DNA of 30,062 nt from an uncultured archaeon (lineage in GTDB: Archaea; Thermoplasmatota; Poseidoniia; MGIII; CG-Epi1). Shown here piece by piece: positions 19,331-22,925 of the stretch (positions are counted from its first letter, which is position 1; each line of letters begins with the position of its first letter). The position numbers were made by a program, and so were the translations under genes. The stretch spans positions 1 to 30,062 of the forward strand of contig CAZXZT010000001.1 in NCBI GenBank assembly GCA_964645695.1, read 5' to 3'. The notes beneath the pieces were generated by a model. The model was given only the letters and a program-made list of their open reading frames with translations. It was not told where the DNA came from and ran no database searches.

Positions 19331-19374
19331 ATTATATAACAGGTAGCGCGGTTCAGATGACTGGAGGAAATACC

Positions 19375-20079
19375 ATGGATCCTGAAACAGAGGGTAAAGT
19401 TGCCCAACTTGAAACTGGTTTGAATCTAGAACAACAGAGACTGGAAAAGTTATGGGATGCTTACGAACAGCAGGAAAAGGATCTAAATGCATCTTTAGAT
19501 CAAATTAATATTTTGGAAGCTGATATCGAAACTAAGGGTACTCTAATCACTTCGTTGCAGGAACTGCTCGGGGAGAGAGATGCTAAAATTCGTGAACTGG
19601 ACGTGGAAAGGCAGAGGCAAAGTAAGGTCGAGGCAGAGTATAGTCCGAGAATCAAGGAAATGGAAGAGACAATTAAGGATCAAACTGGCAAATATGATCG
19701 ACTTCTTTCGATTACGCAGGAAATGGAGGATGAACTTGATCTGGCTAGACGTGCATTGCACGCCAGAGATAGTTGGTTTAACCTGAATGTGAGTAGTCTC
19801 GAGTCCATATCTGATCTGATAAAAGAGTGGAGAGATATTCAGGCTGGGAAATTCCCTGAAAGTGGTGGAACGGCAGGGCCTGGTGGCGGAAAATCAGAAT
19901 TTGTCGAAGCTGTATCCACAATAAAGGGACTCGGTGCAGTCAAAGCTGAGAATTTGTATGATGCTGGATTCCACACTGTGGAAGAACTAAAAGCCGCATC
20001 CGTGGAAGATATTGCAAGCGTTGTCGGTTTCACCAACTTAAGCGCAAACAAAGTGGTCAACGGCGCCAAAGGACTTTAG
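19375..20079 (+). CDS. Coiled-coil protein with C-terminal helix-hairpin-helix domain
   Basis: About 130 aa of heptad-rich helix, a Gly-rich linker, then IKGLGAVKAENLYDAGF.TVEEL..AS.EDIASVVGF. Shine-Dalgarno GGAGGA at 19363-19368 supports ATG 19375. Confidence 0.8.
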   Translation: MDPETEGKVAQLETGLNLEQQRLEKLWDAYEQQEKDLNASLDQINILEADIETKGTLITSLQELLGERDAKIRELDVERQRQSKVEAEYSPRIKEMEETIKDQTGKYDRLLSITQEMEDELDLARRALHARDSWFNLNVSSLESISDLIKEWRDIQAGKFPESGGTAGPGGGKSEFVEAVSTIKGLGAVKAENLYDAGFHTVEELKAASVEDIASVVGFTNLSANKVVNGAKGL

Positions 20080-20615
20080 ATTCGTAAAAAATTTACAACA
20101 GTTTTTTCGTTCCTGACCTCTGGGTGGAAAGACACACCGAACATTTCTCTTGATTTGTGTTTGACTGCTTGAACACTCGTTTCGCTTCTGGCTAATACTG
20201 TAAAGAAGTCCAAATGGTCCACCGAGAAATTGTGGAGGGCATATGCTTGAAATTTTCCATGACAGAGGCTATTGGGTTCCAAAGTCTTCACCTCAATCAT
20301 TCCAATCTCGACATTTTCGATTATTTTATCCTCAAAAAGAGAACAGACTATCTGCATCCCTGAACAAATGCCGAGAACTGGCCTCTCAAAGTCGAGTAGG
20401 AGGTTCTTAAATATCTTCAAATCATTCAGATAGGCATTGTCCTGTAGTGAGGTACCGCAAATCATGATTTTATCGGCACCAGAAACGTCCTTTTCAGTGC
20501 ATTCTGCATAGTGTCGAACCTTGCAATATTCGGGCTTGACTATCTTAGCAATAGGGGAAACAAATTCCATTTCACTCAATTTCTCGCTACAAGTGGATAT
20601 CAGAAGATGGTTCAT
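20076..20615 (-). CDS. Stand-alone class I glutamine amidotransferase (glutaminase subunit)
   Basis: Nucleophile elbow PVLGICSGMQ and the His-Glu pair in GVSFHPE give an intact Cys-His-Glu triad. Confidence 0.88.
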   Translation of the reverse strand: MNHLLISTCSEKLSEMEFVSPIAKIVKPEYCKVRHYAECTEKDVSGADKIMICGTSLQDNAYLNDLKIFKNLLLDFERPVLGICSGMQIVCSLFEDKIIENVEIGMIEVKTLEPNSLCHGKFQAYALHNFSVDHLDFFTVLARSETSVQAVKHKSREMFGVSFHPEVRNEKTVVNFLRI

Positions 20616-21286
20616 TCTAACTTCACCTCTTTAATTTCCAGACGTCCTGCAAAATTGGAATAGTGCTTTGTTGACTTGACTATCTTTATCGATCGTCTGA
20701 ACAAGGGTGCATCCTGAACAAATGATTCGATCTCGCCACCTTCTCCTGCTGGATTTATACCGTATTCTGATTCCAGAGCAATCAGCTCCTCTACAGATTT
20801 GGAATCGATCTTCCTGCCAAGCCAAGTCGCATCCAGAGGTTCTGCGGCGACACCCGTTATGATGGATACTACATTGGTTGCAATTAGTTCCTGGAGCAAC
20901 GATTTTTGTGTCTTTTGCCACAATGGATTAAAACACCAAAGGTTTAGATCGTTGCACGCTCTTTGAATTCTTGTAGACTGATAGGTTGAGGCCAAAGCTC
21001 CAGAGACAACTCCGTCAATTGAGTATTGTGAAATTGCAGACCTGATGATTGAATGTAGATCCTCCAGTTCCCTCTCCTTGACACCGCTTGTTCTAGACAC
21101 AAGATGGGGGAACCCCATTGCCTCAGCTTGCGTCCTGGTCCATTCAATAGCTGGAGTGTGAAACATCCAGCTGTCCTCGCGTTCTGAATGAAGGGTCAAG
21201 AGACAACTTATCTCGTTTTCCTGAGATGCGTGTTGCAGAGCAAGATAGGAATCCTTGCCTCCCGAGAACAAAACTGCCAGTTTCAT
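20612..21286 (-). CDS. dph6: Diphthine--ammonia ligase (Dph6, PP-loop ATPase)
   Basis: LFSGGKDS, SWMFH, GVVSGALAS.YQ, NPLWQ, GVAAE, WLGR, PAGEGGE.ESFV.DAP. Confidence 0.9.
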   Translation of the reverse strand: MKLAVLFSGGKDSYLALQHASQENEISCLLTLHSEREDSWMFHTPAIEWTRTQAEAMGFPHLVSRTSGVKERELEDLHSIIRSAISQYSIDGVVSGALASTYQSTRIQRACNDLNLWCFNPLWQKTQKSLLQELIATNVVSIITGVAAEPLDATWLGRKIDSKSVEELIALESEYGINPAGEGGEIESFVQDAPLFRRSIKIVKSTKHYSNFAGRLEIKEVKLE

Positions 21287-21870
21287 CGCTTCCTTTTAGC
21301 TATCAGATAAACTTCGCTTGATTTCTTCCTCGATGCTTCTGGCGATAGTGTCCTGACGGAACCAAACTCATCTATGACGGCTTCACGGAAATCTTGAAAG
21401 TCTGAACCTTCGAAAACTTTGACCACGAACGAAGTGGCTTTTCTCTCCGATGCAATGTCCAGTGCTAAGGACGACAATTCCACGGAACGGGCCTGATCTA
21501 CAGAATAGTTGCCGGAGAGATTAGGGCTCATATCTGATATAACCACGTCGGCCCTTGGCAAGAGGTTCTCCAGTTCTTTCCTCGTTTCCAGTTCACGGAG
21601 ATCTCCCTGAATGAATTGAGCGCCCTTCAAGGGAAGAACATGCTGTAGGTCCACGCCTACTAATTTCCCATCATCGCCAACATGCTCGAGAGCTACTTGG
21701 GACCAGCCTCCCGGTGCGGCTCCAAGATCCAGAACCGTATCGGCTTTCTTGAATATCTTGCTTTTCTTCTGGATGTCCATCAACTTGTAGGCTGATCTGG
21801 CACGATAGCCTTCCCTACGTGCACGTCTCTGGAAAGCGTCGCTACGACCTCTCCGTCCTTGACCTGGCAT
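21283..21870 (-). CDS. rlmE: 23S rRNA 2'-O-methyltransferase RlmE (FtsJ/RrmJ)
   Basis: GYRARSAYKL, VLDLGAAPGGWSQ, VISDMSPN, FVVKVFEG, ASRKKSSEVY (K-D-K-E tetrad). Start moved to ATG 21870, forming a TAATG overlap with the HEAT gene. Confidence 0.95.
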   Translation of the reverse strand: MPGQGRRGRSDAFQRRARREGYRARSAYKLMDIQKKSKIFKKADTVLDLGAAPGGWSQVALEHVGDDGKLVGVDLQHVLPLKGAQFIQGDLRELETRKELENLLPRADVVISDMSPNLSGNYSVDQARSVELSSLALDIASERKATSFVVKVFEGSDFQDFREAVIDEFGSVRTLSPEASRKKSSEVYLIAKRKR

Positions 21871-22925
21871 TATGATCCGCCAGCTTTTTTGAGGGCCCAT
21901 TCCGCCGCTTTACAAATATTTCTATCAGCACCGGTGGTCGTGCGGTTACGTATGATGCCTAAATGTGGCTTGACCAGAGCAGGTTTGTTCGAACCGATGT
22001 AGCCCAGTGCTTTGACAACTTCAATATGAATGTACCAGTCCTCATTCTTGAGGGCCTTGGCCAGTCGAGGTACTGCATGATATACAATCATTGCATCCTT
22101 ACTCCCAATTCTACCCAGTGCCGTAGCAGAGGCTTTCCTGAGTTCCGACGATTTACTTTCAAGACCTTGGATGAGACCAGGGACTGAAGCCTTGACTGCA
22201 TCGGGACTCGCGAGACCGAGCATTCCTATACAGTCTGCAGCTCTTTCCTTCAGGCGTTCGCCTGAACCGAAAGCAACAATGACTTCAGGGGCCAAAGCCA
22301 ACGAGGGGTCAGGATATTTTCTTGCAAATTCAGTCAGGAGGACAATCGAATGATACTTGACACGCCAATCGTCGTCTGCCAGCGCATTCTTCAGTTCAGG
22401 TAAGGCCACTTTGGGCACGCTGTGGAGAATCTTCGACAAAGATTCCTGTGTCTGGTAACGAATGTCCTTATCGTCGTCGCTTAGCATCTCGAAAAGGACG
22501 GCGATGGTGTCGCTTGTTTTGGTGTCGGATTTTAGAGAAAAACGTGTCCAGATATCAACCACCTTGCTTCTGACGCTTGGGTACGGGCTATCTAGGGTCT
22601 CCTGAATTGTTTCAAATATCTCCTCTTCGCGTGAAACTCTGACTTTACGAAGTTCGAGCAAACCGTCAATAATCGCTTCCTGAGGAGAGGCCAGCTGACC
22701 TGGCAATACTCTTAGGAAAGAAGTTATAATCGGATCGGCCCACTTATCATCAGTTTGGGCCTGAATTACGAGAGCTTGCACCGCGGCGCTCCTTTCAATT
22801 TCCGTACCGCTTTCCATTTCGGCAAGATTTCGCTCTATTTTACGGTCCAGAGAACTGCCACCAGCAGAATCGGCCCACTGGCCAACAGTTTCTTTCAAAT
22901 TCTGGAATCTATCCCGAAAACCCAC
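21870..22925 (-). CDS. HEAT-repeat protein
   Basis: Tandem repeats of about 40 aa such as L.D.D..(I/V)R.....L..I and L.S.SSELRKASATALGRIG. Confidence 0.85.
   Translation of the reverse strand: MGFRDRFQNLKETVGQWADSAGGSSLDRKIERNLAEMESGTEIERSAAVQALVIQAQTDDKWADPIITSFLRVLPGQLASPQEAIIDGLLELRKVRVSREEEIFETIQETLDSPYPSVRSKVVDIWTRFSLKSDTKTSDTIAVLFEMLSDDDKDIRYQTQESLSKILHSVPKVALPELKNALADDDWRVKYHSIVLLTEFARKYPDPSLALAPEVIVAFGSGERLKERAADCIGMLGLASPDAVKASVPGLIQGLESKSSELRKASATALGRIGSKDAMIVYHAVPRLAKALKNEDWYIHIEVVKALGYIGSNKPALVKPHLGIIRNRTTTGADRNICKAAEWALKKAGGS

Follow-up and report, generated by a model that had tools for sequence, protein, structure and literature searches.

Where does the nitrogen of the final reaction in making diphthamide come from in an archaeon in which dph6, the gene for diphthine-ammonia ligase, is followed directly by a gene encoding a stand-alone class I glutamine amidotransferase (GATase)? 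This question is raised by the DNA stretch analyzed here, 30,062 nucleotides of contig CAZXZT010000001.1 (hereafter the window), which is part of assembly GCA_964645695.1 of an uncultured Marine Group III archaeon. The assembly is a metagenome-assembled genome (MAG) of 1.1 Mb in 193 contigs and is 84.6% complete. Catalogues list Dph6 under EC 6.3.1.14, as a ligase that depends on ammonia. The original prediction, made from the letters of the window, held that Dph6 and the GATase form a complex in which ammonia from glutamine is channelled to Dph6, and the comparative genomic analyses presented below support this proposal. We estimate at roughly three in four the probability that this gene pair specifies a glutamine-hydrolysing diphthamide synthetase made of two subunits, as judged from comparative sequence data. 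The final nitrogen of diphthamide probably comes from glutamine rather than from free ammonia.

The gene pair and the family of its predicted glutaminase

Both genes are located on the minus strand of the window (coordinates in Table 1). The upstream open reading frame encodes Dph6, with scores of 210 bits for PF01902 and 263.7 bits for the NCBIfam model TIGR03679 (Dph6_archaeal), which is above the cut-off of 197.3 bits. The protein contains the PP-loop SGGKDS and, as EGGEIE, the EGGE/DxE motif by which Dph6 can be told from the DUF71-B12 subfamily (de Crécy-Lagard et al. 2012, PMC3541065). It lacks GAT-II and Asn_synthase domains and is therefore not of the AsnB-Dph6 fusion type. The downstream open reading frame encodes a class I GATase (PF00117, 54.4 bits versus a cut-off of 22.8) without a synthase domain and with an intact catalytic triad, formed by Cys84 in GICSGMQ and by His164 and Glu166 in FHPE. 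At the junction, the plus strand reads TCAT and the coding strand accordingly ATGA, in which the TGA stop codon of dph6 overlaps the ATG start codon of the GATase gene. The observation of the overlapping gene pair is therefore confirmed, including the triad, the lack of a synthase domain and the overlap as they had been described, and it is also correct that no guaA partner is present nearby.

A HMMER search of 1.84 billion representative proteins showed that the GATase belongs to a family of at least 325 clusters (E < 1e-10), the best 150 of which all have E-values below 2e-21. Members are about 170–195 amino acids long and share an N-terminal motif LSxxEFVxPI and the motifs CGT(S/A)L, LGIC(A/S)GMQ and FHPEVRN, of which CGT(S/A)L stands where GuaA has GGP. 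All of these motifs are present in the window GATase, which matches the family profile from end to end with 223.6 bits. Its N-terminus had been described as atypical; the sequence quoted was correct, but the apparent oddity is the conserved motif of this family. In an alignment of 69 family members, residues E17, G54 (the oxyanion glycine), G82, C84, G86, F163, H164 and E166 are invariant, and the invariance of the triad and motif residues argues for an active glutaminase. Among the curated models of NCBIfam and Pfam, none is dedicated to this family, and no structure has been solved within it, the nearest being structures of GuaA subunit A (E ~1e-24 to the family profile). Members are named “hypothetical protein” by NCBI and “GMP synthase (glutamine-hydrolysing)” by JGI. 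The organism names that go with close homologues are “Candidatus Poseidoniia archaeon” and “Marine Group III euryarchaeote”.

The linkage of dph6 and the GATase gene is conserved across archaeal phyla

Within the order, the GATase gene is located directly after dph6 in all 20 untruncated loci, which come from the genus and from a second family (45–69% identity). The two genes overlap in all 20 loci, by ATGA or, in one case, by GTGA, and GGAGG or GAGG is present upstream of the GATase start codon. In the two genomes of the second family, the pair persists, but none of its other neighbours (rlmE, the HEAT-repeat gene, the helix-hairpin-helix gene and cgi121) was detected next to it.

GTDB species genomes were then scanned using a 21-sequence sub-alignment of the family as seed, which yielded at least 418 confirmed members. 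Linkage was counted for the best 80 of these loci, which belong to Woese-, Pace-, Nano-, Aenigm- and Iainarchaeota, Thermoplasmata, ANME-2/Methanosarcinales, Methanomicrobiales and Bathyarchaeota. A dph6 gene is present upstream, on the same strand and within 4 kb, at 72 of the 80 loci. It is immediately adjacent at 55 loci, with a 4-nt overlap called at 32 of these, and at seven of the 80 no dph6 is found nearby. Five genomes with an unlinked GATase gene contain exactly one Dph6 each. The conservation of the pair across phyla is beyond chance, and the linkage holds in the order, in Thermoplasmatota and in DPANN, Bathyarchaeia and methanogen lineages.

In a sample of 151 Thermoplasmatota genomes, 144 contain Dph6 and about ten contain a true partner, which we defined as a match of more than 170 bits over the full length of the family profile; ten out of ten of these members are located directly downstream of dph6. 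A true partner was not found in the sampled genomes of f3 and f4, other families of the class that we took to be Marine Group II, and the weaker matches in these genomes cover only the GuaA-like part of the profile. In the DPANN phylum that holds the Pacearchaeota genomes, the partner is present in 31 of the 121 sampled genomes. The original prediction had also suggested that the system would be useful in ammonium-poor water. This rationale is not supported, because the family is common in DPANN from groundwater and sediment, in Bathyarchaeia and in relatives of methanogens, and because the Marine Group II genomes that were sampled, from the same class as this organism, yielded no member.

Some DPANN loci have genes inserted between dph6 and the GATase gene (GNAT, SLT, TauE, SIMPL and a hydrolase). 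These were considered as possible parts of the system, which we rejected because they are heterogeneous. A GNAT acetyltransferase gene whose stop codon overlaps the start of the GATase gene is present in four DPANN loci (Table 1), and in one of these (L082) it is fused to a squalene/phytoene-synthase-like domain. The other inserts (SLT, TauE, SIMPL and an 825-amino-acid hydrolase) look unrelated to the pair.

Natural fusions and their predicted structure

At least nine natural fusions of Dph6 and GATase were found. All six long matches in the search of representative proteins consist of Diphthami_syn_2 followed by GATase, and two of these six clusters were confirmed on MAG contigs, of 95 kb (Methanothrix) and 23 kb; the Methanothrix fusion bears the NCBI name “diphthine--ammonia ligase”. 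Three further fusions are present in GTDB representative genomes (L134, L166 and L167). The linkers of about 20–65 residues argue against simple frameshift artefacts, without excluding them.

Two of the fusions were modelled with AlphaFold2, using an alignment that contained the fusions together with separate Dph6 and GATase rows. The models have a mean predicted local distance difference test score (pLDDT) of 95.4 with a predicted template modelling score (pTM) of 0.93, and a pLDDT of 95.0 with a pTM of 0.92, respectively. Such pTM values would indicate a confidently fixed domain arrangement, because they would be out of reach for two domains (about 225 and 180 residues) whose orientations were independent of each other. 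According to Foldseek, the N-terminal domain superposes on Dph6 of Pyrococcus (PH1257/PF0828; template modelling (TM) score by target 0.93–0.95, root-mean-square deviation 1.2–1.5 Å), and the C-terminal domain resembles GuaA subunit A (TM score by target 0.74–0.78). All Foldseek matches in the PDB are to single domains, and no two-domain template for the interface was found there.

Long open frames upstream of the GATase gene in the GC-rich genomes G112, G127 and G077 were rejected as fusions, because dph6 is in another frame. The 3′ end of the L134 fusion (G061:C173:4800-7009) runs into low-complexity sequence rich in Ser, Pro and Gly at the end of its contig, which is probably an assembly artefact. 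In the Methanothrix MAG, a CbiA/GATase_3 gene similar to cobyrinic acid a,c-diamide synthase precedes the fusion (L128:2426-3922), probably by coincidence.

Partner-linked Dph6 proteins form a group of their own

In a tree built by maximum likelihood from 60 Dph6 sequences, a single branch (support 100/99) separates the 40 that are linked or fused to the GATase from 20 partner-less Thermoplasmatota sequences. The Dph6 of Marine Group III groups with partner-linked Dph6 proteins of other lineages and not with those of Marine Group II. Seven positions mark the linked group (C28, A84, Q108, C118, N120, P150 and P179), and this signature is present in all 15 Dph6 proteins that had been held out, five from genomes with an unlinked GATase gene and ten from separated loci. 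We rejected the signature as a perfect predictor of the partner, because C118 and N120 are present in five of 11 DPANN Dph6 proteins for which no partner was detected.

Another glutaminase arrangement is known for Dph6, namely fusion to AsnB. In a larger quick tree, AsnB-fused Dph6 and five partner-less DPANN Dph6 proteins form the sister of the GATase-linked group. We therefore looked at the distribution of both arrangements in 120 DPANN genomes with Dph6 (G193-G312): 31 have the class I partner (fused in two), 48 have AsnB-/Asn_synthase-type fusions and 41 have neither. The class I partner and an AsnB-type fusion occur together in none of the 120 genomes, versus 12.4 expected; the nominal Fisher p of 5e-9 for this mutual exclusion is overstated, because the genomes are related. 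The AsnB-type fusions were called from open-frame lengths, read by hand, and the three of the 48 frames checked by Pfam are either GAT-II + Asn_synthase + Dph6 or Asn_synthase + Dph6.

We lean towards a broader view of these data, in which one distinct lineage of Dph6 functions solely in heteromers, or occasionally fusions, with a class I glutaminase dedicated to it, as a diphthamide synthetase that hydrolyses glutamine. The two-gene module would have spread between archaeal phyla, being present in Marine Group III and not found in the sampled Marine Group II, and Dph6 would have two glutaminase solutions that exclude each other, this module and the AsnB fusion.

Alternative explanations

Several results weigh against a dedicated glutamine-dependent synthetase. 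Most archaea lack the partner, which is present in about 7% of the sampled Thermoplasmatota and 26% of the DPANN-phylum sample, and at 13 of the 80 loci between 0.7 and 3.4 kb of heterogeneous, unrelated genes lie between dph6 and the GATase gene. Several DPANN Dph6 proteins without a detected GATase carry most of the signature, which must therefore be partly phylogenetic, and in the larger quick tree three such proteins fall inside the GATase-associated group. The fusions are rare, being singletons or pairs from metagenomes, and a shape search of the ESM Atlas did not find a large cluster of Dph6-GATase fusions. Moreover, the alignment used for modelling has only six paired rows, so that the high pTM may be over-confident. 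Finally, the ATGA overlap alone is weak evidence, because such overlaps are common in this compact genome, as exemplified by the rlmE/dph6 junction (21283-21286), which likewise reads ATGA.

The separated loci, together with the seven GATase loci that have no dph6 nearby, would also be expected if the GATase were an independent enzyme, for example a gamma-glutamyl hydrolase, a free glutaminase or a regulator, that is merely co-transcribed with dph6 and channels no ammonia to Dph6. The GATase indeed gives weak Peptidase_C26 matches, and its N-terminal third is unlike that of amidotransferase subunits of known function. We nevertheless consider this explanation unlikely. Independent fusions occur in several lineages and the domain pair is predicted to be confidently packed, every tested genome with an unlinked GATase gene still has a Dph6 of the linked type, and the GATase partner and the AsnB-type glutaminase fusion of Dph6 are mutually exclusive. 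In addition, the closest structures and profiles are those of GuaA glutaminase subunits, which are coupled to a synthase.

A quite unlikely explanation is that the pair is a glutamine-dependent amidoligase whose Dph6 has changed substrate and no longer acts on diphthine of EF-2, as has been proposed for DUF71-B12. DUF71 is not monofunctional (PMC3541065), and partner-linked Dph6 proteins form a separate group with signature residues of their own. However, the window dph6 is the sole PF01902 gene in the genome, and the nine other partner-bearing Thermoplasmatota genomes also have a single PF01902 copy each. Dph2 is present in the genome, and EF-2 is encoded on contig C182, with the acceptor loop LHEDAIHRGPAQ (HEDAIHRG) and the acceptor histidine. 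No Dph5 was detected in this MAG (84.6% complete); nine of 12 genomes of the genus have it, with its gene beside carA. A change of substrate would thus leave the pathway without its last-step enzyme. Furthermore, the window Dph6 scores above the cut-off of the Dph6 equivalog model, retains Y102-Q103, and has kept EGGExE where the B12 subgroup shows ENGE(F/Y)H.

In genomes of the genus (e.g., G005:C46:265-2048), dph5 directly adjoins carA, which encodes the small subunit of carbamoyl phosphate synthetase (351 amino acids). In this MAG, the carA contig (G000:C46:1-1014) starts inside carA, and dph5 was therefore probably lost at the contig break. In family f3 (e.g., G027:C2:26669-27055 and G038:C2:82557-82946), Dph6 matches cover only Pfam positions 72-86 to 218; the frames encode 260–293 amino acids, and the N-terminal PP-loop region seems to be strongly diverged or replaced.

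That the GATase serves GMP synthase, as a divergent additional copy of GuaA subunit A, is very improbable and largely refuted. Such a role is suggested by the JGI name of the relatives and by the fact that GuaA subunit A is the best match in both NCBIfam and the PDB. However, using the GMP synthase subunit A models NF001975 / TIGR00888 of NCBIfam, the best score of the window GATase is 62.5 bits versus a cut-off of 198, and the second model gives 55.5 bits versus 172. The family profile cleanly separates its members (>170 bits, full-length) from GuaA subunit A (<90 bits, positions 42-177 only). Of 31 genomes of the genus, 27 also contain a full-length canonical GuaA subunit A (202–221 bits), and the N-terminus of the canonical copy of this MAG is present at G000:C120, where it is cut by the contig end (57.8 bits over only 68 residues). 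The window GATase is therefore not the only GuaA-like glutaminase of the genome. It shares 31% identity over 104 residues with one GuaA subunit A of the genus, with which its N-terminal third does not align. In addition, the GATase gene adjoins dph6, whereas guaAB, encoding the ATP-pyrophosphatase subunit of GMP synthase (GMP_synt_C, GuaA subunit B), is located on a separate contig, C19. Finally, GMP_synt_C was not detected in any of five DPANN genomes in which the GATase gene has dph6 within 4 kb upstream. As far as sequences can tell, a role of the window GATase in GMP synthase is excluded.

The other GATases of the genome are CarA (on a separate contig, C46), PurQ, the GuaA subunit A fragment, a 255-amino-acid C26-like hydrolase and a 550-amino-acid frame, which we took to be CTP synthase from its size alone. 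With these assigned, the dph6-linked GATase is the only class I GATase without a known partner. The C26-like GATase gene (G000:C74; L009:1462-2229, minus strand) overlaps a gene for a PqqB-like protein with a metallo-beta-lactamase fold, and the best match of its product is gamma-glutamyl-CDP-amidate hydrolase (76 bits, below cut-off).

The remaining explanation, adjacency by chance through gene packing in a small compact genome, is in keeping with the frequency of ATGA overlaps and with the synteny of the HEAT-rlmE-dph6-GATase block in the genus, but it is refuted by the survival of the pair where the flanks change and by its recurrence in several phyla and as fusions.

A proposed mechanism and its relation to known systems

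The pairing of subunits A and B in GMP synthase is well established, and the scheme that we propose for the dph6-GATase pair is modelled on it. By analogy with the two-subunit GMP synthase, Dph6 would use ATP at its PP-loop to turn the diphthine carboxylate of EF-2 into an acyl-adenylate. The GATase would hydrolyse glutamine by means of Cys84, His164 and Glu166, and the nascent ammonia would cross the interface between the subunits and reach the active site of Dph6, where it would attack this acyl-adenylate to yield diphthamide, AMP and pyrophosphate. We thus infer complex formation, an ammonia channel and glutamine-dependent activity by analogy. The overlapping ATGA and the upstream GAGGTG might result in coupled and roughly equimolar synthesis of the two subunits. 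Glu17 and the N-terminal motif of the GATase may have a role in the interface or in activation.

Two-subunit archaeal GMP synthases are known from M. jannaschii and P. horikoshii (PDB 2lxn, 7d40, 1wl8 and 2d7j). As in these enzymes, a small class I GATase (~180–190 amino acids) would act with a separately encoded PP-loop enzyme that adenylates the substrate, and GuaA subunit A is the closest match to the GATase in sequence and fold (profile E ~1e-24), with the triad and the oxyanion glycine retained. The proposed system differs in that the partner is Dph6 (PF01902) and not GuaA subunit B, and in that the substrate would be a protein side chain instead of xanthosine monophosphate. The GATase itself differs from GuaA subunit A by its own N-terminal motif (LSxxEFVxPI), by CGT in place of GGP, by scoring below the cut-off and by coexisting with a canonical copy.

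The AsnB-Dph6 fusions (PMC3541065) are similar to the window pair in that Dph6 is teamed with a glutamine amidotransferase module proposed to supply ammonia. In these fusions, an N-terminal class II (N-terminal nucleophile) glutaminase and a second PP-loop domain are joined to Dph6, whereas the glutaminase of the window pair is of the class I triad type and is a separate protein encoded downstream. The Dph6 enzymes regarded as ammonia-dependent (EC 6.3.1.14) include YLR143W of yeast and PH1257 and PF0828 of Pyrococcus (PDB 2d13 and 3rk1). They share the PP-loop and EGGExE with the window Dph6, but they have no class I GATase partner, and those of eukaryotes carry RidA-like C-terminal domains instead. 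Partner-linked Dph6 proteins, for their part, form a group of their own with signature residues.

It was proposed previously that the ammonia source of Dph6 varies, eukaryotes having RidA domains and some archaea GAT-II/AsnB fusions (de Crécy-Lagard et al. 2012, PMC3541065). That paper does not mention a class I GATase partner of Dph6 or clustering with one, and no such partner is described in Narrowe et al. 2018 or in the other literature retrieved. The claim that the arrangement had not been described before therefore stands for the class I partner but does not amount to complete novelty, because a varying ammonia source was proposed in 2012. According to a review of 2021 (PMC8305020), the assignment of haloarchaeal dph6 awaits experimental confirmation, and our literature searches turned up no characterisation of an archaeal Dph6. 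New here are the contrast between Marine Groups III and II, the Dph6 tree and signature with their held-out confirmation and limits, the exclusion with AsnB fusions, the lack of detectable GMP_synt_C in partner-bearing DPANN genomes and two fusion models with high pTM.

If the proposal is true, many archaea finish the universal modification of EF-2 with nitrogen from glutamine, by an activity that at present has no Enzyme Commission (EC) number and would need a new entry. Hundreds of database entries named “GMP synthase” or “hypothetical protein” would have to be corrected, and the pair would be one of few cases in which a class I amidotransferase works for a synthetase that modifies protein. 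The question on the nitrogen source of Dph6 raised in 2012 would then be directly testable with two small soluble proteins.

Features of the locus and neighbouring genes

Table 1. Features of the dph6-GATase locus (window positions, except for the last row).
Feature	Position	Strand	Remarks
dph6, diphthine-ammonia ligase (224 aa), proposed synthetase subunit	20612..21286	-	TIGR03679, PF01902
Stand-alone class I glutamine amidotransferase (GATase, 179 aa), proposed glutaminase subunit	20076..20615	-	PF00117
ATGA overlap, dph6 stop/GATase start	20612..20615	-	Overlap retained in 20/20 loci of the order
GAGGTG, Shine-Dalgarno-like motif in the dph6 3′ end, 8 nt before the GATase ATG	20624..20629	-	Putative function
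Cys84 codon, predicted catalytic nucleophile (GICSGMQ)	20364..20366	-	Invariant in the 69-sequence family alignment
His164-Pro165-Glu166 codons, remaining predicted triad (FHPE)	20118..20126	-	H164 and E166 invariant; P165 at least 90% conserved
His164 codon	20124-20126	-	Checked in the sequence
Glu166 codon	20118-20120	-	Checked in the sequence
Glu17 codon in the family-specific N-terminal motif LSExEFVxPI	20565..20567	-	Invariant in the family
Dph6 PP-loop SGGKDS (residues 8-13), ATP pyrophosphatase motif	21248..21265	-	Kept in partner-linked and partner-less Dph6
EGGEIE (Dph6 residues 182-187), Dph6-specific EGGE/DxE signature	20726..20743	-	Motif definition from PMC3541065
rlmE (FtsJ-type 23S rRNA methyltransferase), upstream of dph6, co-directional	21283..21900	-	PF01728, 175 bits
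GNAT-insert loci of DPANN	L068:1247-1708, L098:3487-3960, L095:3531-3992, L082:2745-4004

Sampled sequence words were looked for in transcript data. One run labelled as RNA, but probably of DNA, contained 27% of the sampled words, and its short contigs cover neither the GATase gene nor the junction; three true RNA-Seq runs contained none of the sampled words.

Upstream of rlmE, a gene encoding a HEAT-repeat protein of 351 amino acids (21870-22925, minus strand) overlaps the start of rlmE by 31 nt, and synteny of the whole co-directional block (HEAT-rlmE-dph6-GATase) is seen throughout the genus. On the other side of the pair, the plus strand of the window (19357-20079) encodes a 240-amino-acid protein with a coiled coil and a helix-hairpin-helix motif. 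This gene is convergent with the GATase gene, the 3′ ends of the two overlapping by 4 nt (20076-20079), and it is a conserved neighbour of the pair in the genus only.

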